A stretch of DNA of 64,000 nucleotides from Candidatus Eiseniibacteriota bacterium (GTDB lineage: Bacteria; Eisenbacteria; RBG-16-71-46): assembly GCA_963725865.1 (NCBI GenBank), contig CAVSAC010000010.1:451736-515735 (forward strand). The letters are read 5' to 3'. Shown here in pieces: positions 32,384 to 62,030 of the stretch. Both the position numbers and the translations under genes were made by a program. The stretch's first letter is position 1. Every line of letters begins with the position of its first letter. A model generated the notes under the pieces. It saw only the letters and a list, made by a program, of their open reading frames with translations, searched no databases and had not been told where the DNA came from.

Positions 32384-35300
32384 ATGGTCGGCTTCCGAGC
32401 CAAAGCGTTGCTGATCGCGAGCATCGCCCTCGGCGGCGCGCTGTCCGCGGCGGCCGCCCCGGCGGGGTCCGGCTCCGCCGCGGGCCGGCCTGCGGGTGCC
32501 ACGCTGCTCGGCTCGATCGACGTGAGCGCCTCGCAGACGGGCCGCACGCTGCGCCCCGGCGACGCGCGGGTGCCGGTGTACGTGCTGGCGATGACGTACA
32601 ACGCCCTGCTGGTGGGCTCGGAGACAGTCACCGAGATCGCGTTCGAGAACCGGACCGCCGGCCCCGGCAACACGGCGCAGAAGGACACCGAGTGGCAGTC
32701 GCTCGCGCTCTCGTGGAGCCGCAGGGCCGCCGACGCGCTCAGTCCGGCGAGTGCCACCCGCGCCGCCGCCTGGACGGGCGGCACGGTGCGCTTCACGGGG
32801 CTCAACATCCCGTTCGGCATCGGCGACTCGGCGTACGTCGTCGTCTGGGGGGCACCCTCGCTCGCCGCACGTGACGCGGACGCGCTCGATCTCCGTATCC
32901 CGTCCACCGGATCGATCCTCACCGGAGGCGGCTCGTCGGTGAACGTGACGAACGGCAGCACGCTGGATCCGGCCGCGAGCTTCCCGGTGGACGGCATGTC
33001 CGCCGCGCAGGTCATGCTGAGCCCGGTGCTCACGCCGTACTTCCCGATCGGCGCCGCCGGACAGCTCGCGCTCGCGGTGCGCGTCCCGCCCAACGGCTAC
33101 GCGGCGGACCGCCTCGAGCGACTCGAGTTCGTCAACCTGGGCACCGCCGCGGTCCACTCCGACATCGCCGCGCTCGATGCGTGGATCGACGACGGCGACG
33201 GGATCTACGAACCCGGTCAGGAGGCGTGGCTCGGCGCTCCGGCGTTCACGGGCACCAGCTGGGTGCTCGGGCTGGCGAGCCCGATCGACCTCCCGCTGCC
33301 CACGGGCGCGTGGATCTACCTGACCGTCGACGTCTCCGAGCAGGCGAAGGAGGGCGCCACCGTCCAGCTCGCGCTCCCGGGCGGTTCCGCCGGCACGCAG
33401 GCGTTCACCGTGACGAGCGGCAATGACGGTCCGAACGACCGCGCGATCGCCAATCCGGCCCAGAGCGTGATCAGCCTGGTCGACCGCGTCGTGGTCTCGC
33501 CCATCCCGCTGCCCTCGGGATTCGCGCGGCCGGGCGAGGCGCGCGTGCCGCTGTTCGCGATGACGGCGACCAACGTCTACACCGACGCGCGCGCGCTGAC
33601 CGGCCTCGTGCTCACGCACGCCACGTCCGGGCCCGGCACCGCCGCCGAGCGCGACGCCGAGATCCAGCGCGTCGAGCTGCGGCTGGACGGGAACTCCGAC
33701 GGCGTGCTCGGAGACTTCGTCAGCGACCCGGTGCTCGCCACCGCGGTGTTCGCGAACGGGCGCGCCAGCTTCTCCGGATTCTCGGTCTCCCTCGCGCCGG
33801 GCGCCAAGCGCTCCCTGTTCGTGACCGGCGACGTCTCGCTCCTCCACGCCGCCGACGGCGACCCGCTCGCGGCGACCGTCGGCACGCGCGAGGACCTCGC
33901 GTTCGACCGCAGCACCACGCTGTCGGGCTCCTTCCCGCTCTCCTCGGCGAACGCCTGGACGGTCGACGGCATGATCGCGGCCCAGGTGGGCAACGCCGGC
34001 GCGCCGCCGCAGACGCTCGCGCCGAACGACGGCCCGCGCGAGGCGCTCGATCTGCTGGTGCACGGCAATGGCTACCAGGACGACGTCCTCCAGCGGCTCT
34101 CGGTGACCAACCTCGGCACCGCCGGCACCACGGACCTCGCCGAGGTGCGGCTGTGGCGCGACGGGGGTGACGGGGCGTTCAACGCGGGCGCGGGCGACGA
34201 CGCCGACCTCGGAGCGATGGCCGCGGGAGCGGACACGTGGGACAGCGGAGCGCTGGCGGTCGCGCTGGGCCCGGCCGGGACCCGTCTGTTCGTCTCCGTG
34301 AGCGCCGGCGGCGCGCCGGCCGACTCCGCCACCGTGCGCCTCGCGGTGCCGGTGAAGGGCATCGCCGTGGCGTCCGGGAACGACGGCCCGGTCGACGTGC
34401 CCGTCGCCAATCCGGACGCGCTGCTGCTCGCCAACCGCGGCCTGCTCGCGAGCCTCGCGTTCGACGCCGCGGCGGTGACCGCGGGCCAGACCGTCACACT
34501 CACGATGACGGTGCGCAGCACCGCGTCGGAGTCCCTCCTCGCGGTGACTCCGAGCGCACCGGCGCTCGCCGGCAGCGCCCGGCTCGGCCCGCTGTCCGGA
34601 CCGAGCCCCGCGAGCCGCGCGCTGGCACCGGGCGCCAGCGGCGCGTTCGCCTGGACGTACTCCGCCGACAGCGCGGGCACGGTCCACGCCATCGCGAACG
34701 CCGCGGGCACCGGCGCCTCGAGCGGGCAGCCGGTGTCGTCGCTCGACACCCGGTCGGGCGCGCTTCGCGTGTTCGCGCGTGCCGACAGTCTCCCGCTGCA
34801 GGTCTTCGACGCCATGCCGCAGTCGGTGACCCGCGGCCAGCGCGGCGTGCTGCCGCTCTACCTGACGTTCGTCCATCCCGATCCCGACGGCAGCCCGGTG
34901 AAGGTGACGGGATTCACCGTGCGGCTCGAACGCGAGGATGGCTCGGACGTGGCGCCGGCCTCGCTGCTCGCGCGCGCCGTGGTGCTCGCCGCCTCCGAGA
35001 CGCTGCTCACCCGCTCCACGCTCGAGACCAGCGGCGCGGACCTGGATCTGGCGCTGGCGATCCCCGCCATCGTGGCGGGATCGGATCCCACCACCCTGGT
35101 GCTGGCGCTCGACGTCGCCGATTCCACCGTGGTGCCCGACTTCCGCATCGTGATCGCCGCGGCGAGCCGGGTGCGCGCCGAGGACGGCGCGACCGGTGCT
35201 CCCGTCACGATCCGGCTCCAGTCGCCGACCTGGCCGGTGCGCAGCGGGCTCGCCCGCGTCCAGGCCGGCGCCACCCAGCTCGAAGTCGCGGCGGCGCCGC

Positions 35301-37051
35301 TGCCGCCGGTGCGCGCGAGCCGCGGCCAGACCGAGGTGCCGCTCGGCACGTTCACGCTGTGGAGCCCGGGGGTGGGCGGCGTCACCACCGACGTGCGGGT
35401 CGGAGCGCTCGATCTCAAGCTCGCCGACACGCTCGGGGCGCGGATCGACCGGCCCGGCCGCATCGTGCGCCGGCTGCGCCTGCGCAGCGGCACGCAGCTG
35501 CTGGCCGACCGGCTGGTCGCCGCCGGCGCCGACAGCGTGCTGGCGCTCACGCTCTCGCCGCTGCTCGCGGTGCCGGTGAACACTCCGACCGAGATGCGGC
35601 TCACCGCCGAGCTCTCCGACACCGCCTCGCTGGGACCGTTCCGGCTCGAGCTCGGGGACAGCGCGCGCTTCGACGCCCGCGATCCCAACACCGGCAACCG
35701 GGTGCCCATCCGGTTCGCGAGCCCGCCGCTGCACGGCCCCGCGGTGCTGGTGGAGGAGCGTGCGGATTCGGCGTGGGTGCTGGGCGTGCCGGAGCTGCCC
35801 GCGGAGGTCGGGCTGGGCGCGCGCGGGGTGACGGCGCTCTCGGTGCGCCTGAGGCACCCGGGTGGTGCGCGCACCGGCCGGCTGCGAGTCGACTCGCTGG
35901 TCGTGCGCTGCGTCGACGCCTCGGGCACGGGCTTGGCGCCGGCGCCCTACCTCGACCGGCTGCAGGTGCTGTGGAACGGAGCGCTCGCCGCAACGGTCTC
36001 CGATCCACCCGCCACCGGCAGCACGCTGCTCGCGATGCTGCCCGGCTTCACGCTCGAGAGCGGCGACAGCGCGCGCGTGACGTTCGTGCTGGACTTCGAG
36101 TCCGCCGCCCCGACCACCACCTTCGCACTCGAGCTGGGCGCCGCGGGGCTCGACATCGACGACGCCAACCTCGACCTGCCGGCGCTGCCGGTGGTGGAGA
36201 ACGACGGGGAGTTCCCACTGCGCTCGGGCGTGGCGCGTCTGGTGGCGCCCTCGCGCCTGGTCCAGGTGGACCTCGACGACGCGATGCCCGCGGTGCTCGC
36301 GCCCGACGGCCAGCTGCGGACGGCGGGTGTCGTGCGGCTGACGAACGGCGCGGCGCCGGGCTCGGGCCCGGTGCGGATCTCCTATCTCGCGGTGCGCGCC
36401 CGCGGCGCCGCCGGCGACGTGCCGCTCGGCGGCGAGGTCTGGCGCGTGCAGCTGACCCGGGACGGCGTGCTGTTCGCGAGCGGCGCGGCGCTCACCTCCG
36501 ACTCGCTCACGTCCGTGGTCTCGTTCCCCACCGAGCTGCAGCTCGAGCCCGGGGTGCCCGTGGATCTGACGCTGCGCTTCGCGACCCGCCCGGGGCCCGC
36601 GCTGGCCTCGTTCGCGCTCGCGCTCGAGGCGGCCGACATCGGCGTGGTGCAGCCGGGCAGTCCGCTGCTCGACGTCTCGGTGCTGCCGACTCCGGGGCGC
36701 ACCTTCCCGCTCGCGACCTCGGTCGGCAGCTATGCCGCCGCGTCGCTGGCCGGGAGCTGGTCGAGCTTCCCGAATCCGTTCGTGCCCGAGCAGGGCGGCA
36801 CCACGTTCGCCTACTACCTGCCGGCGGCGGGGCGCGTTTCGCTCGCGATCTGGACCGCGCGCGGCGAGCGCGTCGCCACGTTGCTCGACGGCGAGGCGCG
36901 CGCGGCGGGACTCCACCAGAGCGACGTCTGGAACGGCCGCAACGGGCGCGGCGCGCTGGTGCAGCCGGGCGTGTACGTGGCCGAGCTGACGGTGCGGCTC
37001 GACGACGGCCGCTCCGAGCAGCTGCGACGCAAGGTGGCGGTGGTCCGGTGA
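32384..37051 (+). CDS. Giant (~1555 aa) secreted repeat protein with C-terminal FlgD-Ig-like / T9SS-type sorting domain
   Basis: GGGAGG RBS then ATG MVGFRAKALLIASIALGGALSAAAA, a signal peptide. Two ~330-aa tandem repeats each end in ...TSGNDGP. A distinct C-terminal half follows. The C-terminus ...SFPNPFVPEQGGTTFAYYLPAAGRVSLAIWTARGERVATL... is T9SS-CTD-like. Confidence 0.6.
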   Translation: MVGFRAKALLIASIALGGALSAAAAPAGSGSAAGRPAGATLLGSIDVSASQTGRTLRPGDARVPVYVLAMTYNALLVGSETVTEIAFENRTAGPGNTAQKDTEWQSLALSWSRRAADALSPASATRAAAWTGGTVRFTGLNIPFGIGDSAYVVVWGAPSLAARDADALDLRIPSTGSILTGGGSSVNVTNGSTLDPAASFPVDGMSAAQVMLSPVLTPYFPIGAAGQLALAVRVPPNGYAADRLERLEFVNLGTAAVHSDIAALDAWIDDGDGIYEPGQEAWLGAPAFTGTSWVLGLASPIDLPLPTGAWIYLTVDVSEQAKEGATVQLALPGGSAGTQAFTVTSGNDGPNDRAIANPAQSVISLVDRVVVSPIPLPSGFARPGEARVPLFAMTATNVYTDARALTGLVLTHATSGPGTAAERDAEIQRVELRLDGNSDGVLGDFVSDPVLATAVFANGRASFSGFSVSLAPGAKRSLFVTGDVSLLHAADGDPLAATVGTREDLAFDRSTTLSGSFPLSSANAWTVDGMIAAQVGNAGAPPQTLAPNDGPREALDLLVHGNGYQDDVLQRLSVTNLGTAGTTDLAEVRLWRDGGDGAFNAGAGDDADLGAMAAGADTWDSGALAVALGPAGTRLFVSVSAGGAPADSATVRLAVPVKGIAVASGNDGPVDVPVANPDALLLANRGLLASLAFDAAAVTAGQTVTLTMTVRSTASESLLAVTPSAPALAGSARLGPLSGPSPASRALAPGASGAFAWTYSADSAGTVHAIANAAGTGASSGQPVSSLDTRSGALRVFARADSLPLQVFDAMPQSVTRGQRGVLPLYLTFVHPDPDGSPVKVTGFTVRLEREDGSDVAPASLLARAVVLAASETLLTRSTLETSGADLDLALAIPAIVAGSDPTTLVLALDVADSTVVPDFRIVIAAASRVRAEDGATGAPVTIRLQSPTWPVRSGLARVQAGATQLEVAAAPLPPVRASRGQTEVPLGTFTLWSPGVGGVTTDVRVGALDLKLADTLGARIDRPGRIVRRLRLRSGTQLLADRLVAAGADSVLALTLSPLLAVPVNTPTEMRLTAELSDTASLGPFRLELGDSARFDARDPNTGNRVPIRFASPPLHGPAVLVEERADSAWVLGVPELPAEVGLGARGVTALSVRLRHPGGARTGRLRVDSLVVRCVDASGTGLAPAPYLDRLQVLWNGALAATVSDPPATGSTLLAMLPGFTLESGDSARVTFVLDFESAAPTTTFALELGAAGLDIDDANLDLPALPVVENDGEFPLRSGVARLVAPSRLVQVDLDDAMPAVLAPDGQLRTAGVVRLTNGAAPGSGPVRISYLAVRARGAAGDVPLGGEVWRVQLTRDGVLFASGAALTSDSLTSVVSFPTELQLEPGVPVDLTLRFATRPGPALASFALALEAADIGVVQPGSPLLDVSVLPTPGRTFPLATSVGSYAAASLAGSWSSFPNPFVPEQGGTTFAYYLPAAGRVSLAIWTARGERVATLLDGEARAAGLHQSDVWNGRNGRGALVQPGVYVAELTVRLDDGRSEQLRRKVAVVR

Positions 37052-39087
37052 GCGCCCCGACCGCGACCCGTCGCCGCGTCGCCCTGGCCCGCGCGGCATG
37101 CGTGCTGGCGCTGGTGTCCTGCGCCGCGGGCCACTCGCGGGCCGCCGACGACGCGGGCACCCGGTCGGTGTTCGCGACCGGCGCCGGCAACCGCGCCCTC
37201 GCGCTCGGATCCGCGTTCTGCGCGCTGGCCGACGACGCCTCGGCGCTGCTCTGGAACCCGGGCGGACTCGGCGGCGTGGAGCGCGCGGAGTTCCAGGTCG
37301 GCGAGGCGAGCCTCAACGACCTCGGCTTCCGCGAGACGTTCGTGGGCTACGTCCATCCCGACTGGCGCTGGGGCACCGCCGCACTCGCGGTGCGGCACTA
37401 CGGCGTGGACGGGATCGACGGCCGCGACGCGCGCAACCTGCCGACCGGCGAGTTCGGGGACCGCGAGACCGAGTTGGCGCTCGGCTACGGCCGGGCGCTG
37501 GGCGAGGCCTTCCGCGTCGGCCTCGCGGGGCGCGTGCGGCGACAGGATCTGGCGGGCCGCTCCGGCATGGGCGTGGGGGCCGATGCCGGGGTCGAGTTCC
37601 GGCCCGGCGCGGTGTTCGACTCCGAGGCGGGCTGGATGCGCGACCTGCAGGTGGGCGTGGCGCTGCAGAACCTGATCGAGCCCTCGATCCGGCTGGACCG
37701 CGCGAGCGTGCCCGATCCCCTCACGCTGCGCGCCGGGCTGTCGATCGCGCGTCCGCTCGCGCTGGGCGGCGTGATCGCGAGCGTCGAGCTCGAGCAGGTG
37801 CGCGACGTGGGCGCGCGCGCCCACGCCGGGATCGAGTGGAACGCGCATCCGCTGCTGTCGCTGCGCAGCGGCCTGGACGACGGCGTGCTGACCGCAGGCT
37901 TGGGCATTCGACTCGGCTCGAGCGCGTTCGAGTACGCGTTCGCCGATCCCGCCACCGGTCCCACCCATCGCGCCGGACTGACATGGCGCTTCGGCCGCTC
38001 GGTGACCGACGCGCGGCAGTTCGCGGAGCGTGCCGAGGAGGAGCGCGTGCAGCAGCGGCTGGTGGCGCTCGAGCGCGAGCGCGAGCGCGATCGCGTCGCG
38101 AACCTGATGGCCGGCGCCGAGGCGGCGCGCGCCGCCGGGCGCTCGGAGGAGGCGCTCGAGGCGCTCGCCACGCTGCTCGCGATCGATTCGACGTTCGCGC
38201 CGGCGCGCGCGCTGCGGGTGGCGAGTCTGGGCGACCGCGCGCGCGCGCTCGAGTCCGCGGGCGACTGGGCCGAGGCGTCGGTGGCGTGGGCGCGCGCGCT
38301 CGGCGAGGCCCCCGGGGACACCACCGCCGCCGCGGGTCTCGCCCGCACCCGCGCCGAGAGCGATCTGCGAGCCGTGCGCTCGGCGGAGATCCGCAAGGCC
38401 TTCGCCGCCGCGCTGGACGCGTTCGCGGCCGACGACCTGGCGGGCGCGCGCGCGGGCCTCGCCCGCATCCTCGCGCAGAACCCGGGCGACGGCGAGGTGC
38501 AGGCGATGCTGAGGCGCGTGGAGGCGGCGATCGGACGGCGGACCGAGGCGTGGCTGCGGCAGGCGGACGCCCTGCGGCAGGCCGGCTCGCTCGACGAGGC
38601 CGCCGCCCTGATCGAGCGCGCGCGCAGCCTCGACCCGCGCACGCCCGGACTCGCGGCGGCGACCGGCGCGCTCGCGCGCGCCGCGGCGCCGGGCACTCCG
38701 CCGCGCGCGAGCGCGCCGGCCCGGACCGCGCGGCCCGCGGCACCGGCCGCCCCGGCGGTCCTCTCGCACGAATCGGAGCGCCAGGTCGCGGAACTCTATC
38801 GGCGCGGCCTCGACGCCCTCCAGCACGGCCAGTCGGACGACGCGCTGCGCGCGCTCGAGCAGGTGCGCGCGCTGCGCCCGGGCTACGCGCGCGTGGACGA
38901 GGTGCTCAAGCGCGAGTACCTGACGCGCGGCATGGAGCTGTTCTCGACCGGGCGCCTGGACGCCGCGGTGCGGATGTGGGAGAGCGCGCTCCGGGTGGAT
39001 CCGCACGATCCGCGCGCGCTCGGGTACCTGGCGCGCGCGCACGAGCAGCTGGCGCGCTCGCGCGAGATCTCGCAGGACGAGCCATGA
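37048..39087 (+). CDS. PorV/PorP(SprF)-like outer-membrane beta-barrel fused to a C-terminal coiled-coil/TPR domain
   Basis: GTG overlapping the upstream stop (GTGA). Signal peptide is present. The N-terminus ...FATGAGNRALALGSAFCALADDASALLWNPGGLG matches the PorV/PorP N-terminal signature. The barrel ends ~aa 350 with ...AGLTWRFGRS. About 330 aa of Ala/Arg/Glu-rich TPR-like repeats follow. Confidence 0.55.
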   Translation: MSAPTATRRRVALARAACVLALVSCAAGHSRAADDAGTRSVFATGAGNRALALGSAFCALADDASALLWNPGGLGGVERAEFQVGEASLNDLGFRETFVGYVHPDWRWGTAALAVRHYGVDGIDGRDARNLPTGEFGDRETELALGYGRALGEAFRVGLAGRVRRQDLAGRSGMGVGADAGVEFRPGAVFDSEAGWMRDLQVGVALQNLIEPSIRLDRASVPDPLTLRAGLSIARPLALGGVIASVELEQVRDVGARAHAGIEWNAHPLLSLRSGLDDGVLTAGLGIRLGSSAFEYAFADPATGPTHRAGLTWRFGRSVTDARQFAERAEEERVQQRLVALERERERDRVANLMAGAEAARAAGRSEEALEALATLLAIDSTFAPARALRVASLGDRARALESAGDWAEASVAWARALGEAPGDTTAAAGLARTRAESDLRAVRSAEIRKAFAAALDAFAADDLAGARAGLARILAQNPGDGEVQAMLRRVEAAIGRRTEAWLRQADALRQAGSLDEAAALIERARSLDPRTPGLAAATGALARAAAPGTPPRASAPARTARPAAPAAPAVLSHESERQVAELYRRGLDALQHGQSDDALRALEQVRALRPGYARVDEVLKREYLTRGMELFSTGRLDAAVRMWESALRVDPHDPRALGYLARAHEQLARSREISQDEP

Positions 39088-41147
39088 GCGCCCGCGCCCG
39101 CATCAGCATGCGCGTGGTGGTGATCTCGGCGACGGTGGCGATCGTGGCCGCGGCGGTGCTGTGCGTCGGAGCGGTCGCCGAACGCAACACGCGGCAGGCC
39201 CTCACCCGCGAGGCGCAGGCGCGACTGCTGCTGGAGGCCCGCAACCTCGCGCTCACCGGGGCCGGCGCGCTGCTGAGCGAGCTGCCCGAGCTCACGCTCT
39301 GCCCGGTGGTGCGCGAGCTCACCGAGTCGCGGCCCGAGCTGGCGTTCGCGGTGGTGCTCGATCACCGCGGCGTGGTCCAGGGCCACCGCGACGCGCGCGC
39401 CCTGGGGGGCACGTGGCGCCTGCCCGCAGGGCTCGCGCCGGTCGCCACCACCGCCCGCCTGCGCGCGGGCGAGGCGCTGCTCGGCGATCCCGACCTGCTG
39501 GTGGCCTCGGTGCCCGTGGCCAGCGCCGCCGGGCAGCGGCTGGGCCTCGCGGTGGTCGGCCTGCGCCGCGCCTACGTCGAGCAGACCGTCGCCGCCGCGC
39601 GGCGACAGCAGCTGCTGCTGGTCGCGCTGGTGCTGGCGGCGGGGAGCGTGCTCGCGTTCCTGCTGCTGACCGCGCTGCTGCGTCCCATCGGGGCGCTGCG
39701 CGCGGGCCTCGAGCGCATCGGGCGCGGCGACCTCGATGCCCCGATCGCGCTCCGCAGCGGGACCGAGCTGGGACTGCTCGCCGACGCGGTCGACGACATG
39801 GCGGCCCGCCTCAAGGTCGCGCGGCACGAGATGGTCGAGAAGGAACGGCTGGCGCGCGACGTCGAGCTGGCGCGTCAGATCCAGGAGCACCTGCTGCCGG
39901 CCGGCTCCCGCACGGTCGGCGACTTCACGCTGTGCGGCTCGCACCGCGCCGCGGCCGAGGTCGGCGGCGACTACTTCGATCTGCTCCCGCTCGCGGACGG
40001 ACGCTGGGCGGTCGCGATCGCCGATGTCTCCGGCAAGGGGCTGGGCGGCTGCCTGGTGATGTCGATGGTGTCCGCGCTGCTGCGGGCGCTGCGCGCCGAG
40101 CATCACTCGCCGGCCGCGCTGCTCGCGGCACTCGAGGAGCAGCTCGCTCCCACCCTGACCCCCGGCACCTTCGTGACGATGTTCTACGGCACCCTCGACC
40201 CGGCGAGCGGCACGCTTCAGTACGCCTCGGCCGGCCACTCCCCGCTGCTGGTGTGGCGCGCGGCCGCGGCCCAGGTCGAGTGGCACCCCACGCGCGGCAT
40301 CCCGATCGGCGCGGTGCGCGGCGGAGTGCTGCGCGGCACGCTGGAGGATCGCACCGTGACGCTGGAGCCCGGCGACCTGCTGTTCCAGTTCACCGACGGC
40401 GCCAGCGAGGCCACCGACCCGGCCGAGCGGGAGTTCGGCTTCGACGGCATCGAACGCGTCGTGATCGAGCACGCCGCCCGCGGTGCCGAGGCGGTGGTCG
40501 CGGCACTCGGCGACGCGCTCGCGCGGTGGTCCGGCGGCGGGGCGCCGGCCGACGACCAGACCCTGCTCGCGGTGGCGCGCGCCGCGCCGCTCGCCGGCGC
40601 GATCCCGGCGCGAGCCCCGCTCGCGGCCGCCGACCCGCTCGCGCTGCTCGAGCACGCGCGCGCGCGCGGCCATCGACTGGAGCTCGCTCCGCGGCTCGCG
40701 GCGCTCGAGGCGCTGGGCCCGTGGATCGCCGGCCTCCCCGACGTCGGCGCGCTCGACGCGGACGCGCGCCTGGTCATCGAGTCGGCGCTCCACGAGCTGT
40801 GCGCCAACGTGGTGGAGCACGGATCGGCGCCGGGCGCCGAGGCGCCGCTCGAGCTCTGGTGGCTCCCGGCCATCGATCCGGCCGGCGGAACCGCCGAGCG
40901 CGTGCGGGCCGGGTGCTTCGTGCTCCGCGACCGCGGCTTCCCGTTCCGCCCCGAGCGGCGCCATCCGTTCGATCCCGCGCACCACGAGGCGTGGCGTCGC
41001 GGGCGTGGTCTGGGGCTCGAGCTGATCCACCGCGCGCTGAGCGAAGTGGTCTTCCGGCCGGGGACGGCCGCCGGCAATCTCACGCTGCTGGCGTTCGATC
41101 CCGGACGCGCCGTTGTCCAACCCGAGGAGCGACGACATGGCGGATGA
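39084..41147 (+). CDS. Membrane sensor: TM + HAMP + PP2C (SpoIIE/RsbU-type) phosphatase fused to HATPase_c (RsbW-like Ser kinase)
   Basis: Its ATG overlaps the upstream stop (ATGA). Two TM helices flank a periplasmic region. HAMP (…LRPIGALRAGLERIGRGDLDAPI…), PP2C motifs (GGDYFDL, ADVSGKG, QFTDGASEA), and a C-terminal LVIESALHELCANVVEHG H-box/N-box. Confidence 0.75.
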   Translation: MSARARISMRVVVISATVAIVAAAVLCVGAVAERNTRQALTREAQARLLLEARNLALTGAGALLSELPELTLCPVVRELTESRPELAFAVVLDHRGVVQGHRDARALGGTWRLPAGLAPVATTARLRAGEALLGDPDLLVASVPVASAAGQRLGLAVVGLRRAYVEQTVAAARRQQLLLVALVLAAGSVLAFLLLTALLRPIGALRAGLERIGRGDLDAPIALRSGTELGLLADAVDDMAARLKVARHEMVEKERLARDVELARQIQEHLLPAGSRTVGDFTLCGSHRAAAEVGGDYFDLLPLADGRWAVAIADVSGKGLGGCLVMSMVSALLRALRAEHHSPAALLAALEEQLAPTLTPGTFVTMFYGTLDPASGTLQYASAGHSPLLVWRAAAAQVEWHPTRGIPIGAVRGGVLRGTLEDRTVTLEPGDLLFQFTDGASEATDPAEREFGFDGIERVVIEHAARGAEAVVAALGDALARWSGGGAPADDQTLLAVARAAPLAGAIPARAPLAAADPLALLEHARARGHRLELAPRLAALEALGPWIAGLPDVGALDADARLVIESALHELCANVVEHGSAPGAEAPLELWWLPAIDPAGGTAERVRAGCFVLRDRGFPFRPERRHPFDPAHHEAWRRGRGLGLELIHRALSEVVFRPGTAAGNLTLLAFDPGRAVVQPEERRHGG

Positions 41148-41487
41148 CTTCGAGATCGAGATCGATCGCAGCCACCCACCGGCCACCGTGGTGCGCGTGC
41201 GCGGCCGCGTCGATGGCCGCACCGCCCCGCGCCTGCTGCGCGAGAGCCTGGCGGCTCGCCGCGCGGGTGCGCTGCTGCTGCTGAACCTCGCCGAGGTGCG
41301 TTTCATCTCCTCGGCCGGAGTCGGCGCGCTCATGGTGCTGGCCGAGACGCTCGGCAAGGAAGGTGGCGGACTGCGGCTGGCTCCGGTGTCGGGCGCGGTG
41401 CGGACCGTGCTCGGCCTGCTCAACCTGGACCAGTTCCTCAGGATCGGCGAGACCGAGGACGAAGCGCTCGGCCGGCTGGGCAGCTGA
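41137..41487 (+). CDS. STAS-domain anti-sigma-factor antagonist (RsbV/SpoIIAA-like)
   Basis: MADDFEIEIDRSHPPATVVRVRGRVDGRTAPRL...LNLAEVRFISSAGVGALM, a STAS fold with the phosphorylatable Ser in the FISSAG motif. GAGGAG RBS. Overlaps the upstream gene by 11 nt. Confidence 0.7.
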   Translation: MADDFEIEIDRSHPPATVVRVRGRVDGRTAPRLLRESLAARRAGALLLLNLAEVRFISSAGVGALMVLAETLGKEGGGLRLAPVSGAVRTVLGLLNLDQFLRIGETEDEALGRLGS

Positions 41488-41488
41488 C

Positions 41489-42820
41489 ATGGGCGAGCCC
41501 GCACGCGATCGCACTCCAGGCCGCGGCCGGCGCCCGCGGCCGCCGCGGCTGACGCCGCTCCCGCCGGGACCGCGCGAGTTGCCGGACGCGCGGCTGGCGG
41601 AGCGGCGCGAGAACTCGCTGATGGCACTGTTCGAGCTGAGTCACGAACTCGATCTGTCGCGCGACCCGTTCGCGATGGGCGAGCTCGCGCTCCTCAATCT
41701 GCTGGGACACTTCGGGACGCCGCGCGCCGCGGTGTGGGGCTTCCCCGCGGACGATCCCGACGCGGCCGTGCCGCTGGCGGCCTTCGGGCTGCCGGAGGGC
41801 GAGGCGGCCGCACTCGGACCGCGGCTGCGGCAGGCGCCCGAGCCGGCGGGCGCGGCCGACGGCGAACCGAAGGAGCTCGAGCTGCCGGCCGCGGCGCGAC
41901 AGGCGGGATTCGCGGCAGTGGTGCCGATCCTCGCGCGCGATCGGCGCATCGGCGTGCTGGCGCTCGGCGCGCGGGTGGGCGGCGAGCCCTACCGGAGCCT
42001 CGACCTCGACCACCTGCGGACCGCGGCGCGCATGCTGGGCGCGGCGCTCGAGAACGCCCGCCTCCAGCAGCACACCGCCGAAGTCAACCGCCGGCTGCGC
42101 CGCGCGAACGAGGAGCTCACCCAGGCCGACCACCTCAAGGCGCAGTTCGTCCAGAACGTGAACCACGAGATGCGCACGCCACTCGCGGTGCTGCAGGGCT
42201 ACCTCGAGATCCTGGCGGACGCCGAGGGCGCGAGCGAGCTCCAGATGCGCGCGTGCGAGGCGATGCTGGTGCAGATCGAGCGGCTGACGCGCATGGTGCG
42301 GGACCTGCTCGAATACTCCGCGCTCTCCGACGGGGCCGGACGCGCGACGCTCGAACCGGTGGCTTTGCCGGCCGCGCTCGAGCGCTACGCCGCCGAGCGC
42401 CGCCCCGGCGTGCTCGCGGGGCTGCGCACGCTCGAGACGCGGATCGAGGAACCCCTGCCGGCCGCGCTGGCCGATCCCCGCCGTCTCGAGCGCACGCTCG
42501 ACGCGCTGGTCGACAACGCGATGCGCTTCACCCCGCCCGGCACCCGGATCGTGATCCGCGCCGCCGTGCTCCAGCGCGCGGACGAGCGCTGGCTGGGGAT
42601 CGAGGTCGTGGACGACGGTCCGGGGATCGAGCCGGACCGTCTCGAGCGGCTGTTCGACGCGTTCCGCCAGGGGGACGGCTCGAGCACCCGCACCGTCGGT
42701 GGCCTCGGCCTCGGGCTCGCGCTGGCGCGCGAGCAGGCGGCCAGCATGGAAGGCGGGCTGGAGGCCGAGAGCACGCCCGGTCGGGGGGCCACGTTCCGAC
42801 TGCTGCTGCGGCCGGCGTGA
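41489..42820 (+). CDS. GAF-domain sensor histidine kinase (HisKA + HATPase_c), no adjacent response regulator
   Basis: VNHEMRTPLAVLQGYLEIL H-box and DDGPGI...GGLGLGLAL G-boxes. N-terminal GAF-like region. Its ATG is 1 nt after the STAS gene stop. Confidence 0.8.
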   Translation: MGEPARDRTPGRGRRPRPPRLTPLPPGPRELPDARLAERRENSLMALFELSHELDLSRDPFAMGELALLNLLGHFGTPRAAVWGFPADDPDAAVPLAAFGLPEGEAAALGPRLRQAPEPAGAADGEPKELELPAAARQAGFAAVVPILARDRRIGVLALGARVGGEPYRSLDLDHLRTAARMLGAALENARLQQHTAEVNRRLRRANEELTQADHLKAQFVQNVNHEMRTPLAVLQGYLEILADAEGASELQMRACEAMLVQIERLTRMVRDLLEYSALSDGAGRATLEPVALPAALERYAAERRPGVLAGLRTLETRIEEPLPAALADPRRLERTLDALVDNAMRFTPPGTRIVIRAAVLQRADERWLGIEVVDDGPGIEPDRLERLFDAFRQGDGSSTRTVGGLGLGLALAREQAASMEGGLEAESTPGRGATFRLLLRPA

Positions 42821-54591: not shown

Positions 54592-56733
54592 ATGATGCAC
54601 CCGAGCCGTCTCGCGGTCCTCCTCGTCCCGATCGTGCTGGGCCTGCTCGCCGCCACCCTTCCGGGCCGCGCCCAGACCCCCGTCCGGTACTACGCCAACG
54701 CCGACACCACGCTGCTCCGGGACACCCTGGGGCTCAAGTTCGACACGCTGTTCCCGCTCGCGGACAGCCTGCGGGTCACCGCCGACACCCTGCGCGCGCT
54801 CTCGATCCGCTACCGGGCGCCGCTGTGGCGGATCGTGAAGCTGGCCGACAGCCTGGCGGTCCCGATGGACAGCGTGGCCGCGGTGATGCAGCGCGAGCGC
54901 TTCAACCCGCTGGCGGCCACCGCGGACTTCACGAACCAGTTCGGGTACAACTCGACCTACGACATCCAGCGCACCTCGAGCAGCTGGCTGAGCGGGGCCC
55001 ACTGGAACTACGTCTCGCGCGCTCTGGTGCTCAACAACCAGACCACCATCACGATGGCGCGCATCAAGGACGCCAAGGGGAGCGCGCCACAGCAGACCCG
55101 CGACATGGTGACCGAGGCCGGGTGGCGCTTCTCGCGCGAATTCTCGGTCGGAGGTCGCGCGCACGTGTATCGCTACGATTACCCCGCGTCGACCGACGCG
55201 GCGGCCACGACGAACGAGTTCTCCGCCCCCGTGCGATTCAAGGCCCGCCCGACGAAGAACCTGAACACCGAGCTGAACGTGCTACCGGGCGCGGTGGACC
55301 TGACCGACGTGCGCCAGGTCAAGCGCGGGTCGAGCGCTCAGGTCGACGGACGCGTGCGCTACTCGCGCGGCGGATTTCTGACGGGAGACGTGAGCGGACT
55401 CCTGTCGGGCAACCTCACCCGGACGCGACAGCCCGAATCGGACGTCACGTTCCGCACCCGGGACTCGCGCCGGAACCTGAGCGGCACGCTCGGCCTGTTC
55501 ACGTCGTCCCCGGTGGGCGCCAATCTGAACTATCGGCTCTCGCGCTCGGTGACCGAGACCCCGCCGGCGCTGGACACTGCGCGCGTCCAGCAGCTCATCA
55601 ACCAGAACGATGGCGCCGAGCTCACGGTGCGCGGGCGGCTCGACAACGACCGCCTGGTGAACGTCACCGGCCGATGGTCGAAGACCCAGACCGCTCAGAA
55701 CGACGCGCTTGCGACGTTCACGACCGGCCGCACGCTCGGGATCAGCGCCGATGGCCGCTACATCGTCCTGAGCCTGCCCTTCGAGTGGCAGTTCTCGAAC
55801 GGCGTCACGAACAGCGACTACCCGCGCCGGGCCGCGACCGGTGGCTACGGCCAGCGCAGCCACGACCGCAGGATCCAGGTCTCCGTGGATCGACCGATCG
55901 CGGGCGGGCACCTGACCCTGCACGCCAAGGGCTCCGTGAGCCTGACCTCCGCGCGCTACACGACGATCGGGACCTACCCGACACCGCCGGTCGACAACGA
56001 CCGCTACGACCAGGGCTATCGCCTGGGAGCGGACTACGTGCCCACGCAGGACTTCAACACCGGGGTCGCGCTCGACGTGCAGCGCTCGCTGACCATCAAC
56101 ATCCCCTCGGGCAGCACCGGGGCCAACAGCCAGGACAATCGCTACGGGGCCGATTGGCGCTGGTCCTACCGCCTGTTCCCCGACCTCACGGTCAACCAGA
56201 GCAACGGCATCCTGGCCGACTACCTCACCTACGTCTATCGCCCGACCACCAATCGCCTGACCCTGCTCTACCGCACGACGACCACCATGTCCGCCGTGTT
56301 GTCCCCGCGATTCGAGTTCAGCATGACGCACAGCGCGGTCTACCAGCCTGGCGGGAACTACACGCTCCAGGCCGACGGCCAGGAGGGATTCACGAAGGCG
56401 GACGAGTCGAAGAACTACACGCTGGTCGGCCAGTTCTCCTACCGCCCGTCGCCCATGCTGGTGTTCGTGTTCGGCCCCAACTACACCTCCAGCGACCGCA
56501 AGAGCACTCAGAACGGTGCGCTGGCTCCCAGCCGGCGCGACCAGAGCTTCACGTTCTCCGGCGGTGCTACACTCAACGTCGCCCTGGGGAGCCGCGGGAA
56601 GCTCACGGGCAACATCAATCGGACCAGTTCGAACACCAGCGCCACCTCGTGGTCGCAGGGGATCCCGCAGGAGCAGCCGGGACTCTCGCAGGGCTTCTGG
56701 AACGGTCAGCTCCAACTCTCGTGGGACCTGTGA
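54592..56733 (+). CDS. Large (713 aa) predicted outer-membrane beta-barrel protein, hypothetical
   Basis: Signal peptide MMHPSRLAVLLVPIVLGLLAATLPGRAQT. Sequence is Ser/Thr/Asn/Tyr/Arg-rich with alternating-polarity stretches, ending ...GQLQLSWDL. Internal ATG of track ORF 54433..56733. Confidence 0.5.
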   Translation: MMHPSRLAVLLVPIVLGLLAATLPGRAQTPVRYYANADTTLLRDTLGLKFDTLFPLADSLRVTADTLRALSIRYRAPLWRIVKLADSLAVPMDSVAAVMQRERFNPLAATADFTNQFGYNSTYDIQRTSSSWLSGAHWNYVSRALVLNNQTTITMARIKDAKGSAPQQTRDMVTEAGWRFSREFSVGGRAHVYRYDYPASTDAAATTNEFSAPVRFKARPTKNLNTELNVLPGAVDLTDVRQVKRGSSAQVDGRVRYSRGGFLTGDVSGLLSGNLTRTRQPESDVTFRTRDSRRNLSGTLGLFTSSPVGANLNYRLSRSVTETPPALDTARVQQLINQNDGAELTVRGRLDNDRLVNVTGRWSKTQTAQNDALATFTTGRTLGISADGRYIVLSLPFEWQFSNGVTNSDYPRRAATGGYGQRSHDRRIQVSVDRPIAGGHLTLHAKGSVSLTSARYTTIGTYPTPPVDNDRYDQGYRLGADYVPTQDFNTGVALDVQRSLTINIPSGSTGANSQDNRYGADWRWSYRLFPDLTVNQSNGILADYLTYVYRPTTNRLTLLYRTTTTMSAVLSPRFEFSMTHSAVYQPGGNYTLQADGQEGFTKADESKNYTLVGQFSYRPSPMLVFVFGPNYTSSDRKSTQNGALAPSRRDQSFTFSGGATLNVALGSRGKLTGNINRTSSNTSATSWSQGIPQEQPGLSQGFWNGQLQLSWDL

Positions 56734-58340: not shown

Positions 58341-59648
58341 CTAGAACGAGTAGGTCGCGGTGATCTTCGGGAACAGCGGGAAGTCGCTGAAGCTGTTCGT
58401 CGGGAGGTAGCTGCCCGGGTTGTTGAAGAAGTCCTGGGCCAGCACGCCGTCGAACTGCAGCGTCCCGACCTTGATGCCAGCACCGGTGTTGAAGCTGAAG
58501 GTGCTGCTGTTCTCCTTGGTGTCGTTCGCCACGCGCGGCGTGTTGTTGTCCTCGAACTTGTTCGAGTAGAACATCGTCTTGCGCGCGCCGAAGCGGATCG
58601 TGAGCCACGGATTCACGTGGGTCTCGAGCGCCGCGAACACCGACGGCATCTGGGACTCGGTGTACTTGAACTTGTTGGTCTTCTGGTCGTCCACGTTCGA
58701 GGCGAAGGTCACGCCCGCCACGAACAGGTCGTTCTGGTTGAGCGTCCAGTTGCCCGCGATACCAGCCGACCATGAACGCCACTGACGGTCGTTCGCCACA
58801 CCCGCCGTCGTCGGATCGTACTTGTACGACAGGTCGTACGATGCGTACTTGAACACCGGCACGACCAGCACGTTCGGCTCCCACTGCCACAGCATGCGAG
58901 CGCTGAACAGGTAAGCGCCGGCGCCGTCTTCGGTCTGCTTGGCGCCGCCGCCGAGCGGCGTGGTGAAGGTACGGCTCTGATACAGGAACGACAGCTCGGC
59001 GTGCGAATTCGGGTTGAGCTCGAAACCGATACCGCCGCCGAGCCCGAACTCGTTGCGCAGCGTGTTGCCGTTGCCTTCGGTCGTGGTCGTGTTGGTGCCG
59101 TCGTCCGACGTGAACTTGAAGTTCGCGCGGTTCAGCCGCAGGCCGACCGACGTGTTGCCGAACTTCTTGCCCCACATGACGTCGAACTGCTCGTAGCCGT
59201 AGAAGTTGTTCGGGTCGTAGCCGCCGTTATAGCCCGGGAAGGGCTGGCTGTAGCTGTCGCCCTGGCCCAGCTGGGGGGAGAACTCGCGCAGGTGGAACGA
59301 GATCGTCCCGTAGCGGCCGTCCCACAGGTTGCCGAGCACCGCGCCAACCGCACGGTCGTCGAGGCCGAAGTAGCCGTCCGACGGGTTGTACGTGTTGTCG
59401 AGCGGACCGGCCACGCGGTTCGGGGCCACCGGCTCGAGATAGAAGTCGCCCGTGTTGCCGAACTCGCCGTACACCAGATTGCCGACGGAGTTCACGCACG
59501 AGGTGAACGTGTAGATGTTCGTGTAGTCCTTGATGTAATCACCCTGGATGTTCATGCCCTCGACACGCGAGGTCTGGGCGAACGCCAGGACCGGGAGTGC
59601 GAGCGCGATGAGGGCCAGGGACATGCTCTTCAGAAGACGAGACTGCAT
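58341..59648 (-). CDS. Predicted outer-membrane porin-like beta-barrel protein
   Basis: Signal peptide MQSRLLKSMSLALIALALPVLAFAQT. Gly/Asn/Thr/Tyr-rich sequence. C-terminal ...ITATYSF ends in the terminal Phe typical of OMPs. Local GC is lower than in the flanks. Confidence 0.55.
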   Translation of the reverse strand: MQSRLLKSMSLALIALALPVLAFAQTSRVEGMNIQGDYIKDYTNIYTFTSCVNSVGNLVYGEFGNTGDFYLEPVAPNRVAGPLDNTYNPSDGYFGLDDRAVGAVLGNLWDGRYGTISFHLREFSPQLGQGDSYSQPFPGYNGGYDPNNFYGYEQFDVMWGKKFGNTSVGLRLNRANFKFTSDDGTNTTTTEGNGNTLRNEFGLGGGIGFELNPNSHAELSFLYQSRTFTTPLGGGAKQTEDGAGAYLFSARMLWQWEPNVLVVPVFKYASYDLSYKYDPTTAGVANDRQWRSWSAGIAGNWTLNQNDLFVAGVTFASNVDDQKTNKFKYTESQMPSVFAALETHVNPWLTIRFGARKTMFYSNKFEDNNTPRVANDTKENSSTFSFNTGAGIKVGTLQFDGVLAQDFFNNPGSYLPTNSFSDFPLFPKITATYSF

Positions 59649-59919: not shown

Positions 59920-60762
59920 TCACCCCTCCCGGGGCTGCCGACGCCCCCCCGCACGGGGCCGTCTGATACCCACGCACTGGAGCGCCAGGTCCTTGTCGTA
60001 CAACGGGTTGTCAGGATCCATCGAGGTGATTCGCACCCGCCCCTGGGCGTGCGCGAAGTAGCCCCCGCCGAGGGCCAGACCGACGTGCGCGGCGCGCTCG
60101 CCGGGCGGGGCGAAGAACAGCAGATCGCCCGCGGCCACCTGGGAGCCGTGCGGCAGCGCCCGCGTCGCTCGCTGCTGCTGATGCGCGTCGCGCGGCAGGT
60201 CGATGCCCTGCTCGGCCAGCACCTGCTGGACGAACCCGGAGCAGTCGAACGCCGCGCTGCTCCGGCCGCCCCAGAGGTAGGGAACGCCCAGCAGCGACTC
60301 GACCCGGTCGGTCAGCCCCACGGGCGACCGCGTACCCGCGGCGAGGGCCGCGAGCGGGACCCACCCGCGGCGACCGTCGGGCAACTCCAGCTGGCGGTGG
60401 CCGGCGCGGGCCGCACCGGGGATGGCACGGGCATTCCAATGGAGCGGCGTCACGGTCAGCCCGGCTCCCGGACGCGCGAGCGCCACCACGGTCGGAACGA
60501 CCACGCGGGCGCGGGCGCGACGACGCCACCGCTCGATCCGAGCCGCCGGCGCCGCCACCAGCCCCCAGGCGCGCACCCAGCCGCGGTAGCCGTCGGAGTC
60601 GTTCTGGATCCGCCACCAGCGGCCCTCGTGGGCGCTCCCGAGCACGTGCACGGTCTCGCCCAGGAGCAGCTGGCTGCGCATCTCGCTGGCGTGGTCGGGA
60701 GCCCGGCGCAGGTCCAGCACCGGGCTGGCGACCACCGCTCGCGGGTGAGGCGGTCGGCTCAC
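59920..60762 (-). CDS. NlpC/P60 (C40) cell-wall peptidase with N-terminal SH3b-like domain
   Basis: ...YLWGGRSSAAFDCSGFVQQV... has the catalytic Cys; His is further downstream. GTG start overlaps the upstream stop (GTGA). C-terminal part of track ORF 59920..61398. Confidence 0.75.
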   Translation of the reverse strand: MSRPPHPRAVVASPVLDLRRAPDHASEMRSQLLLGETVHVLGSAHEGRWWRIQNDSDGYRGWVRAWGLVAAPAARIERWRRRARARVVVPTVVALARPGAGLTVTPLHWNARAIPGAARAGHRQLELPDGRRGWVPLAALAAGTRSPVGLTDRVESLLGVPYLWGGRSSAAFDCSGFVQQVLAEQGIDLPRDAHQQQRATRALPHGSQVAAGDLLFFAPPGERAAHVGLALGGGYFAHAQGRVRITSMDPDNPLYDKDLALQCVGIRRPRAGGRRQPREG

Positions 60763-62030
60763 TCGAGTCCTTCGCTGACCAGCGTGAAGCGGCCGAAGCC
60801 CTCGCGATCGACGAACACGAATCGCCGGTAGGGCTGGTTGTAGTACCAGATCTCGACCTGGTTGCTCACCATGCTCGCGGGCCGCGACTCGACCTGGTCG
60901 GCCGGCCCGTACTTGATGTAGATCCGCCCCATGTCCGATCGCCAGCCGGGCCCGAAGCCCTGGAAGTGCATCTCGGCGTAGCGCAGTCGGCGGAAGAACT
61001 CGAGCATCGCCTCGTTGCGCGGAGTGTCGGGCGACGGGTCGCGTCGGCGCCAGAACGCCTCCCAGCCCGCCGCCTGTTCCGCCGCCGGCAGCGCCCGCAG
61101 GTGCTCGATCTCCCCCGCCTCCGCGACGTAGCCGAGCGGTTCCAGCAGGCGCTCGAATTCCTTGCCGCGCGGCGGGCCGCTCTCCTCCACCTCGAACGAG
61201 CGCTCGATGCGCCACCGCGAGCGTCCCTCGCTCACCTCGATCTCGAACGTGTAGTCGCCAATGAACAGGTCGCTGCGCGACGGCCGCACGACCAGCGAGT
61301 CGGAGGGATGCGTGAGCGTGACGGTCTCGGCGCCCGTGACGACTTCGTCCTGGCTGTCGTCGAGGATCCGGTAGCGGAGCGGGTACGTGCGTGGCCACGC
61401 GCCCGGGCGCCGATCGAACATCACCACGCGGACGGCGAGCTTCGACACCTCGAGCCCGTAGCGGCGCCCCGGGATCGGAGTGAAACCCCGCGTCGAATCG
61501 GCGACCCCGAGCTCGAGTTCCGAGAAGCCGAAAGGCATCTTCGCGTAGTCCGGCAGTTCGAGCTCGTCGCTCGCACTCGAGAGTTCGCGCGACCCCAGGT
61601 CGCGGACCGAGACCTCGACGCGATACCGGCCGGGCGGGACCACGAGCGTGCGCCGCTCCGACAGGTTGGCGGCCGCGGAGCGCGTCTCGGCAAAGCTCGC
61701 GACCGCGATACGGCGGCTCCAGACGTCACCGTACAGTCGTCCGTTCCCGTGCGGCCGCAGTACCACGGTGAACTCCGCGCCGGCGGCGTACCCGGCGGGG
61801 ATCTTCAGCCACTGCAGCTCCCCGTGGGGCACCGTGAGGGTCACGCCGACGCCTGGATGCCCCTGGTCGTCGACCGAGATGGCGATGTCGGCGGTGAAGA
61901 GCGGCTGCCGATCCGAGCGCAGCGGCGGAATGTCGTCCGCGTGGGCCGGCAGGCGGCCGCCGGCGAGCCCGAGGGCGGCGGCGAGCAGGATGACGATGGG
62001 CGGCTGGACGCGCGGGATCAGGCGGAGCAC
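60759..62030 (-). CDS. GWxTD-domain secreted protein
   Basis: Signal peptide MLRLIPRVQPPIVILLAAALGLAGG. The C-terminal ...FQGFGPGWRSDMGRIYIKYGPADQVE...EIWYY matches the GWxTD domain signature. Confidence 0.65.
   Translation of the reverse strand: MLRLIPRVQPPIVILLAAALGLAGGRLPAHADDIPPLRSDRQPLFTADIAISVDDQGHPGVGVTLTVPHGELQWLKIPAGYAAGAEFTVVLRPHGNGRLYGDVWSRRIAVASFAETRSAAANLSERRTLVVPPGRYRVEVSVRDLGSRELSSASDELELPDYAKMPFGFSELELGVADSTRGFTPIPGRRYGLEVSKLAVRVVMFDRRPGAWPRTYPLRYRILDDSQDEVVTGAETVTLTHPSDSLVVRPSRSDLFIGDYTFEIEVSEGRSRWRIERSFEVEESGPPRGKEFERLLEPLGYVAEAGEIEHLRALPAAEQAAGWEAFWRRRDPSPDTPRNEAMLEFFRRLRYAEMHFQGFGPGWRSDMGRIYIKYGPADQVESRPASMVSNQVEIWYYNQPYRRFVFVDREGFGRFTLVSEGLE

Follow-up and report, generated by a model that had tools for sequence, protein, structure and literature searches.

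Only for a few systems is it understood how events at the surface of bacteria with an outer membrane are reported to the cytoplasm. In FecA-FecR-FecI, NlpE-CpxA and RcsF-IgaA, a surface-exposed part of the outer membrane reports to an inner-membrane protein through a periplasmic contact. Here we analyze a cluster of five genes, g1 to g5, on the + strand of a 64,000-nucleotide stretch of DNA from a Candidatus Eiseniibacteriota bacterium (GenBank assembly GCA_963725865.1, contig CAVSAC010000010.1, positions 451,736 to 515,735; hereafter the window), in which a giant surface protein and a PorV-like outer-membrane barrel are encoded together with a membrane sensor. The families of the three systems above are unrelated to those of the cluster, and they lack PorV-like barrels, TPR arms, sCache receivers and tethered giant immunoglobulin (Ig)-repeat proteins.

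By analogy, the nearest functional precedent is PorA-PorV-PorY of Porphyromonas gingivalis. PorA is a C-terminal domain (CTD) protein that binds PorV and acts upstream of PorY, a kinase of the inner membrane; it gets to the surface even when no type IX secretion system (T9SS) translocon is present, and its signal to PorY is mediated, according to the authors, by some unknown factor (PMC7712824). This precedent amends a preliminary description of the cluster, made from the window's sequence, which had taken T9SS pairs of type-B cargo and PorP/SprF-like barrel as not wired to signaling genes. The two systems differ in several respects. PorA, PorV, PorY and PorX-SigP are not described as one operon, whereas the cargo, barrel and sensor of the window are translationally coupled; P. 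gingivalis PorV has no TPR arm, whereas the window barrel carries one that is predicted to be periplasmic; PorA is small (a 23-kDa form), whereas g1 is giant; and PorY is a histidine kinase, whereas in the window sensor sCache and HAMP are combined with a partner switch as output. The cassette looks like a hard-wired version of the PorA-PorV-PorY idea, with the mediator built in.

Its cytoplasmic side has other relatives. Like g3 and g4, HsbR-HsbA of Pseudomonas and CrsR-CrsA of Shewanella have a PP2C domain and, after it, an RsbW-type kinase/anti-sigma domain in one protein, alongside a separate STAS protein; in those systems the former protein sets the phosphorylation of the latter, HsbR works with HsbA on FlgM or HsbD, and the STAS protein goes on to bind a non-sigma target, for example a diguanylate cyclase or FlgM (PMC6482189). 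However, the input of HsbR and CrsR is a cytoplasmic receiver fed by a phosphorelay, whereas that of g3 is a predicted periplasmic sCache domain plus HAMP, and in contrast to Hsb and Crs, the window cluster has no sigma, anti-sigma or cyclase gene, its candidate target being a GAF histidine kinase. In SiaABCD of Pseudomonas aeruginosa, a small phosphorylatable switch protein activates an enzyme encoded next to it (PMC7647112, PMC8457831). Phosphatase and kinase are separate proteins in Sia, with no outer-membrane partner known, whereas they are fused in g3; a module in Zixibacteria in which a STAS gene precedes a GGDEF gene (see below) has a layout similar to that of SiaABCD. The PP2C phosphatase of SiaABCD is a membrane-anchored protein with a HAMP domain.

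Adjacent genes for a large cargo protein and for the barrel that receives or anchors it, a layout that g1 and g2 resemble, are also found in T9SS type-B CTD cargo with PorP/SprF-like neighbors (PMC12618676, PMC9143113). In contrast to those pairs, the window barrel is PorV-like, the CTD is FlgD_ig-like, the pair is joined to a sensor, and pairs of the g1/g2 type extend to phyla without documented T9SS. The author of the preliminary description did not recognize the arrangement as described, and we likewise found no description of it (PorV with a partner switch, TPR, Cache or FlgD), and no paper tying Eisenbacteria to T9SS, in the searchable literature, which omits most subscription papers.

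RESULTS

The cluster spans 32384-42820 and consists of the following genes and parts.

32384-37051, + strand: g1, 1555 amino acids (aa)
36734-37048, + strand: C-terminal domain of g1 (residues ~1451-1555), a FlgD-Ig-like beta-sandwich with which the protein ends
37048-39087, + strand: g2, 679 aa
37285-37992, + strand: barrel of g2 (residues 80-315), ~14 long strands in the AlphaFold2 model
38002-39075, + strand: TPR arm of g2 (residues 319-676), a long helix and ~15 more helices in the AlphaFold2 model
39084-41147, + strand: g3, 687 aa
39189-39815, + strand: input module of g3, comprising sCache_3_2 (residues 36-173), the second transmembrane segment (TM2) and HAMP (residues 196-244)
41137-41487, + strand: g4, 116 aa
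41489-42820, + strand: g5, GAF-HisKA-HATPase_c

All five open reading frames (ORFs) are open in these frames. Because the window is ~73% GC, long ORFs occur in every frame; a third-codon-position GC of 0.93-0.95 tracks exactly the frames of g1 to g5. The four overlapping or abutting junctions of the preliminary description are likewise borne out: the g1 stop and g2 start share GTGA (37048-37051), the g2 stop and g3 start share ATGA (39084-39087), the g4 ATG at 41137 lies 11 nt inside g3 (stop codon 41145-41147), and the g5 ATG at 41489 lies 1 nt past the g4 stop. A GGGAGGA sequence is found 6 nt 5' of the g1 start at 32384. The overlaps recur in related loci, with a 4-nt cargo/barrel overlap also present in Eisenbacteria-type, Zixibacteria and Elusimicrobia loci and an 8-nt g3/g4 overlap seen repeatedly among orthologues; thus, they are not due to chance. 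The start of g5 is the least certain, and the only uncertain one of the five: its first 30 codons are Arg/Pro/Gly-rich, of low complexity and without a clear frame signal, alignments of its orthologues begin only at residues 11-52, and further in-frame starts are found at 41579 (TTG) and 41621 (ATG).

On its 5' side, the cluster is separated by a 146-bp gap from a radical-SAM/metallophosphoesterase gene pair, and on its 3' side a convergent mgsA-like gene begins after 31 bp. We considered the radical-SAM and metallophosphoesterase genes as possible members of the unit and rejected them, as tblastn found no homologues of either in any related locus. A scan of the cluster DNA for promoters and terminators turned up none, a result that carries no information at 73% GC.

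We examined how far the linkage is conserved by scanning one genome per species with a 10-sequence alignment of g2 (a 31-sequence alignment was too diverse for this purpose), which yielded 80 loci, and by comparing these using tblastn with the window proteins, a hidden Markov model (HMM) of five sCache-HAMP modules and a CTD HMM. Orthologous g2 genes (40-49% identity) were found at 14 non-redundant genome loci (L001, L003 and L005-L016). A g1 orthologue lies directly upstream in all 14, as well as in three metagenome contigs with the same arrangement (from precomputed Pfam annotation); these upstream proteins are 35-50% identical to g1 over the part held by the contig, and are nearly full length on the longer contigs. 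Directly downstream of g2, an sCache-HAMP sensor is present in all orthologous loci in which the sequence continues. In contrast, the flanking genes differ in every locus with annotated flanks (MTTB methyltransferase, MacB/RND pumps, Crp/sigma-54 regulators; mgsA in the window). The cassette genes stay together while their flanks differ, so the joint conservation in related genomes on which the preliminary description had staked its proposal is what we find, and g1, g2 and the sCache-HAMP sensor are inherited as a unit.

The orthologous loci are labeled Eisenbacteria/Eiseniibacteriota and Krumholzibacteriia, with several odd labels. The contigs of L003, L013, L001/L004 and L011 are labeled Limnocylindria, Dormiibacterota or Fibrobacteraceae, which is odd beside the Eisenbacteria and Krumholzibacteria labels of their closest relatives, and is probably due to mis-binning or automated taxonomy.

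The preliminary description had tied the cargo/barrel pair to a Ser/Thr partner switch. The conserved linkage supports this tie in loci of the window type, but the constant partner of the barrel-TPR protein is the periplasmic sCache-HAMP input module, with the partner switch as one of about six outputs. Within the clade of the orthologous loci, two (L010 and L011) retain g1 and g2 and have a sensor of sCache_3_2-HAMP-HD_5 (HD-GYP type) architecture with no PP2C domain (L010:5430-6878, L011:11886-13349), whose input is 46% identical to residues 2-247 of g3; the next ORFs are on the opposite strand and have no Pfam match. More distant barrel-TPR proteins (23-34% identity) are also preceded by a protein with the same kind of CTD, and their sensors vary further. 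Krumholzibacteriia-type loci (L017, L019, L025, L030, L032) encode a permuted kinase-sCache-HAMP-PP2C-HTH-3xSTAS giant and a ParA-like gene; in the Zixibacteria locus L027, a kinase-sCache-HAMP-PP2C protein is followed by STAS and then by a GGDEF cyclase; Elusimicrobia loci L035, L043 and L058 have HAMP-histidine kinases, in which Pfam sees sCache in L035 and L043, while the L058 sensor matches the sCache-HAMP HMM mainly across TM2-HAMP; and L047 has sCache-HAMP-Guanylate_cyc, a nucleotide cyclase. About six interchangeable output architectures, spread over at least four phylum labels and sharing one input, are the classical signature of a conserved sensory interface.

In the Krumholzibacteriia-type sensor at L019:11827-16287 (also in L017, L025 and L032), a single 1486-aa product combines an RsbW-type kinase, a transmembrane/sCache-like region, HAMP, PP2C, HTH and three STAS domains; its gene precedes one for a ParA/MinD-like ATPase, and two additional STAS genes lie farther downstream.

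We found that the presence of an adjacent sensor varies with how long the PorV-like protein is:

590-700 aa with TPR arm: sensor adjacent in 26 of 26 loci
400-550 aa with short TPR: sensor adjacent in 2 of 25 loci
barrel only: sensor adjacent in 0 of 22 loci
more than 1100 aa: sensor adjacent in 0 of 2 loci

We therefore rejected the idea that a PorV-like barrel with a TPR extension of any kind must have a sensor beside it, because short- and very long-TPR forms occur without one. Pairing of cargo with barrel is general: in 53 of 74 loci (L003-L082, many phyla), an ORF that closes with a FlgD_ig-like CTD lies immediately upstream of the gene for the PorV-like protein and often overlaps it by 4 nt, so that dedicated cargo-barrel pairs seem to be the rule in the phyla scanned, outside Bacteroidota.

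Other barrel classes have their own neighbors. In Elusimicrobia (L040:10001-17385, L026:10001-17440, L059:10001-18562), the gene for a PorV-like barrel of ~535 aa, short in its TPR tail, precedes one for a 650-720-aa FliG_M/FliG_C/TPR protein, which in L026 additionally has YscJ_FliF_C; next comes a 1230-1600-aa protein with no recognized domain except a C-terminal TPR in L059; the setting of this FliG-like gene is apparently non-flagellar. At L054:10001-18244 and L021:10001-13768, PorV-like barrels carry ~900-aa TPR tails, and the next genes in L054 encode a PorZ_N-propeller/Reg_prop/Glucodextran_B/LysM protein and a protein with a weak dCache_1 match.

The g2 product is an outer-membrane protein in which a PorV-like beta-barrel is fused to a C-terminal TPR domain. 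It matches the NCBIfam family PorV_fam (PorV/PorQ, NF033709) at residues 45-233 (80.0 bits, E 2.3e-22, under the cut-off of 90; model positions 10-204 of 326), TPR families of Pfam and NCBIfam match as well, and one homologue (P0072) carries the NCBI name 'PorV/PorQ family protein'. With the barrel of the AlphaFold2 model (predicted local distance difference test score, pLDDT, 88.1), the top Foldseek matches were 8gl6_F (E 2e-10, TMt 0.62), which comes from a T9SS translocon complex solved with RemA-CTD bound to it, and, next, 6h3i_F (E 3e-9, TMt 0.63). We take both to be PorV chains, as the Foldseek table names only the complexes; FadL, TbuX and TodX rank below the T9SS translocon chains. On this reading, PorV is the nearest solved fold. 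Of the preliminary label 'PorV/PorP-like', the first half thus stands by fold and profile, and membership of the PorP/SprF family is rejected. Relatives are numerous: there are 139 full-length homologues, clustering at 50% identity leaves more than 100 representatives of full length, and 1540 matches have E<=1e-30. In an even-stranded outer-membrane barrel, the C-terminus lies in the periplasm; because the TPR arm comes after the last strand of such a barrel, it is predicted to be periplasmic.

The g1 product is a secreted, Sec-exported string of Ig-like domains with a FlgD-Ig-like domain at its C-terminus. It begins with a hydrophobic signal segment (residues 8-27), and no Pfam domain scores above cut-off, the sole match being FlgD_ig at residues 1474-1536 (22.8 bits, cut-off 27). 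The AlphaFold2 model of residues 540-1555 (pLDDT 89.7) is all-beta, with a string of Ig-like sandwiches and a compact C-terminal domain, and ends in a compact strand run at model residues 934-1014. The repeats are visible in the model alone, as self-BLAST gave no off-diagonal (internal) match; Foldseek with this model returned generic Ig/MG-domain arrays only (TM-score ~0.1), which gave no functional lead. The 94 homologues of g1 cover 95-100% of the query, and many are longer (2000-3500 aa), several of them with CLIPPER, CARDB, beta-helix or NHL domains. Neither Pfam nor comparison with these homologues revealed a recognizable catalytic or binding head in the window protein, which we read as the conserved ~1500-aa core without the extra domains of the longer forms.

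The CTD of g1 comprises ~105 residues with the motif FPNPF...WDGRNGxG...GVYVAE...RKVAVVR (the second block also given as WxGRNGxG). Pfam FlgD_ig matches the CTDs of all 15 orthologues examined (best E 7.9e-9), and among structures the CTD profile matches FlgD (E 7e-5) and, weakly, the C-terminus of PorU (6za2, residues 1059-1154; E 0.034). The preliminary description had called this domain type-A-like. The layout of g1 is indeed that of type A, a Sec signal opening the protein and a beta-sandwich of ~80-100 aa closing it, and the CTD HMM match extends to the last residue in all type I loci. However, neither g1 nor the 15 orthologue CTDs match TIGR04183 or Por_Secre_tail (PF18962) at E<=0.1. 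Thus, the likeness is one of resemblance to a domain that is FlgD_ig-like, and we rejected g1 as type-A CTD cargo because it fails the type-A sorting-domain models. Among the annotated genes of the window, we found none for the T9SS core components (SprA/Sov, PorK/L/M/N, PorU). Elsewhere in the window, the 317-aa product of 5046-5999 (+ strand) has a weak match to the g1-type CTD profile near its C-terminus (E 0.0015) and may be another small CTD protein.

The g3 product is predicted to be an inner-membrane sensor with intact PP2C and kinase motifs. Its order is TM1, sCache_3_2, TM2, HAMP, PP2C (SpoIIE) and an RsbW-type kinase (HATPase_c_2), with transmembrane segments at residues 7-34 and 175-205 that place the sCache domain, by prediction, in the periplasm. 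Pfam scores are 150.6 bits for SpoIIE (cut-off 25), 46.1 for sCache_3_2, 44.1 for HAMP and 38.2 for HATPase_c_2 (residues 538-668; cut-off 27.4); the PP2C metal-binding motifs GDYFD, DVSGKG, TDG and DDQT are all present, and the N-box and G-boxes of the kinase are visible in the translation. We rejected an assignment of g3 to SiaA (NCBIfam NF038263), since it scores 48.3 bits against a cut-off of 700; the resemblance is one of architecture.

The g4 product is a STAS protein of the RsbV/SpoIIAA/HsbA type with a conserved phospho-serine. It scores 53.4 bits with Pfam STAS and 53.2 with TIGR00377 (cut-off 53.45), and Ser59, in the motif F-I-S-S-A-G, occupies a column that is invariant in 12 aligned sequences (11 orthologues and one Zixibacteria homologue); we take this residue to align with Ser58 of SpoIIAA. 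The cluster thus has the parts of a partner switch, namely a PP2C domain with its metal motifs, an RsbW-type kinase and a STAS protein with a conserved serine. A Pfam scan of the cluster and its flanks turned up neither a sigma nor an anti-sigma gene, and it found no receiver-domain gene among the 20 neighboring genes scanned (20.7-51.9 kb), in agreement with the earlier statement that the cluster lacks a sigma factor and a response regulator. The candidate targets of the switch are adjacent enzymes, the GAF kinase in the window and the GGDEF protein in L027.

By its translation, g5 encodes an intact soluble GAF histidine kinase, with Pfam matches to GAF, HisKA (58.8 bits) and HATPase_c (90.2 bits), an H-box (NHEMRTPL), N, G1 and G2 boxes and no transmembrane segment. 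A GAF kinase gene follows STAS in 9 of 13 PP2C-type loci (L003, L005, L006, L007, L008, L012, L013, L014 and the P0008 locus). Because it is missing from L001, L083 and L084, the invariant core comprises four genes (g1 to g4), and the GAF kinase is an accessory member of the cassette. Thus, the domain identities first proposed for the five products hold with amendments to the barrel and the CTD, and the five-gene unit holds for its first four genes.

The wider neighborhood in the window consists of housekeeping genes (cytochrome c maturation, pyridoxal phosphate synthase, Fe-S assembly, cobalt transport, RodA/PBP2). In addition, we noted by Pfam four further genes at:

54592-56733, + strand
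58341-59624, - strand
60759-62030, - strand
62269-63999, + strand

Among these, two products (713 and 427 aa) have no Pfam family, one carries a GWxTD domain, and one, an M6 peptidase resembling immune inhibitor A, runs off the end of the window.

DISCUSSION

We propose that the cluster is a trans-envelope module for outside-in signaling, a model to which, taken as a whole, we give about even chances, with contacts that we infer from the parts, their topology and their association. PorV holds CTD cargo, and PorP/SprF hold neighboring type-B cargo likewise (PMC12618676). Once exported, g1 would stay at the cell surface, bound through its CTD to its own PorV-like barrel, while the TPR arm of the barrel would hang in the periplasm and touch the sCache domain of g3. 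Whether surface protein or barrel is loaded, ligand-bound, pulled or lost would set the HAMP output, which would shift the balance of PP2C and kinase in g3 and hence the phosphorylation of g4 at Ser59; one phospho-form of g4 would then bind its target and alter the target's activity. By analogy to SiaC-SiaD and HsbA-HsbD, in each of which a small switch protein open to phosphorylation binds a diguanylate cyclase, and to the STAS-GGDEF pair of L027, the likeliest target in this lineage would be the adjacent GAF kinase g5; alternatively, it may be a sigma factor sequestered by the kinase domain of g3, as in CrsR. The outside-in direction is favored because the TPR arm and sCache domain are both predicted to be periplasmic and because the sensors end in signal-generating enzymes.

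Several observations weigh against this model. The direct TPR-sCache contact, which we hold tentatively and would put at slightly worse than even, is argued wholly from gene association and topology, and sCache domains usually bind small molecules, which needs neither g1 nor g2. The CTD of g1 fails the T9SS type-A models, and Elusimicrobia are not known to possess a T9SS. TPR extensions are not specific to sensor-linked barrels, as TPR-bearing PorV-like barrels also occur without sensors: the ~535-aa class is followed by FliF/FliG-like proteins, the two versions longer than 1100 aa have no sensor, and comparison of the last TPR pair between the sensor-linked and other classes gave no discriminating motif. 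At L060:206-1957, moreover, CarboxypepD_reg and, at the C-terminus, an OmpA peptidoglycan-binding domain are joined to a PorV-like barrel, a further type of periplasmic extension in this barrel family. The proposed target g5 is absent from 3 of 13 orthologous loci. Finally, the loci come from many related metagenome-assembled genomes, such that their counts are not independent events.

The alternative that survives best is a shared regulon, in which the sCache domain would sense a periplasmic small molecule and the outputs, whether the partner switch or others such as c-di-GMP enzymes, would tune expression, secretion or biofilm formation, including the adhesin-like g1 and its barrel, with no signal passing through g1 or g2. 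Most characterized Cache domains do bind small ligands, GGDEF, HD-GYP and Sia/Hsb-like switches are typical regulators of lifestyle and biofilm, and the HTH domain of the type II sensor could act on DNA directly. However, a shared regulon leaves unexplained why the input, rather than the output, stays with g1 and g2 across six output swaps, why the sensor tracks the long-TPR barrel (26 of 26 loci, compared to 2 of 47 for shorter forms), and why the genes for sensor and barrel overlap or lie end to end. We consider it unlikely, while allowing it a real chance.

We also considered that sensing might be coupled to uptake, such that g1 captures or processes a substrate, the barrel serves as a channel for the product, and the latter, perhaps with the TPR arm as carrier, reaches the sCache domain as its ligand. 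PorV is a cargo shuttle and not a transporter (PMC12618676), the window g1 is without a recognizable head, and the tight pairing of CTD cargo with barrel in 53 of 74 loci suits anchoring better than transport. These points make uptake improbable, despite the FadL, TbuX and TodX channels for hydrophobic compounds that are the next structural matches of the barrel, the weak Pfam Toluene_X matches in homologues, and the g1 homologues with variable N-terminal binding or enzyme-like heads.

The preliminary description had suggested the opposite direction, with the partner switch perhaps governing display or release of g1; such control could take in export too, much as cyclic di-GMP, LapD and LapG act on the adhesin LapA. 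The apparent co-transcription of cargo, barrel and signaling genes is compatible with such control, and LapD likewise has HAMP, sits in the inner membrane and acts in the periplasm. In contrast, the sensors found here end in kinase, phosphatase, cyclase or HD-GYP domains while their sensory-type domain is predicted to be periplasmic, and the cassette encodes no periplasmic protease or other effector; enzymatic outputs behind a periplasmic sCache-HAMP module argue for outside-in signaling, and we regard inside-out control as highly improbable. Least probable of all is a TPR arm that serves secretion only, docking the shuttle to periplasmic T9SS parts as PorW and PorE, both TPR proteins, do, with the sensor as a secretion-stress monitor or unrelated: TPR proteins are T9SS components (PMC8754138, PMC12773672), and TPR-bearing PorV-like barrels do occur without sensors, but neither the 26-of-26 link of the 590-700-aa form to sCache-HAMP sensors nor the presence of the module in Elusimicrobia is accounted for.

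We rate the outside-in module as a combination of known kinds, PorA-like surface-to-sensor signaling and an Hsb/Sia-like partner switch. Extending it beyond this lineage is a step for which we see somewhat less than even chances: the barrel with its ~350-aa TPR arm, found in several uncultured or little-studied phyla under the labels Eisenbacteria, Krumholzibacteria, Zixibacteria and Elusimicrobia, would be the outer-membrane end of an unrecognized class of surface-signaling systems, with a giant tethered Ig-repeat protein bearing exchangeable heads as its extracellular antenna, direct contact to sCache through barrel and TPR arm, and at least six outputs. The model predicts that the TPR arm binds sCache and that STAS phosphorylation depends on g1 and g2.

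The cassette is a compact, hard-wired candidate answer to the question of how surface events reach the cytoplasm, with cargo, PorV-like barrel, TPR arm and sCache sensor translationally coupled, and the outputs exchanged in nature point to the input side as the interface that is conserved. The cassette also proposes a role for the ~1500-aa core of g1 and for the barrel-TPR proteins of 660-700 aa (over 100 representative clusters), two large families that are uncharacterized. Pairs of FlgD_ig-like CTD and PorV-like barrel are common beyond Bacteroidota; if the model is true, such CTD/PorV-like pairs would work outside the canonical T9SS, and the cassette would reveal the kind of mediator that is missing between PorA/PorV and PorY in P. 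gingivalis.

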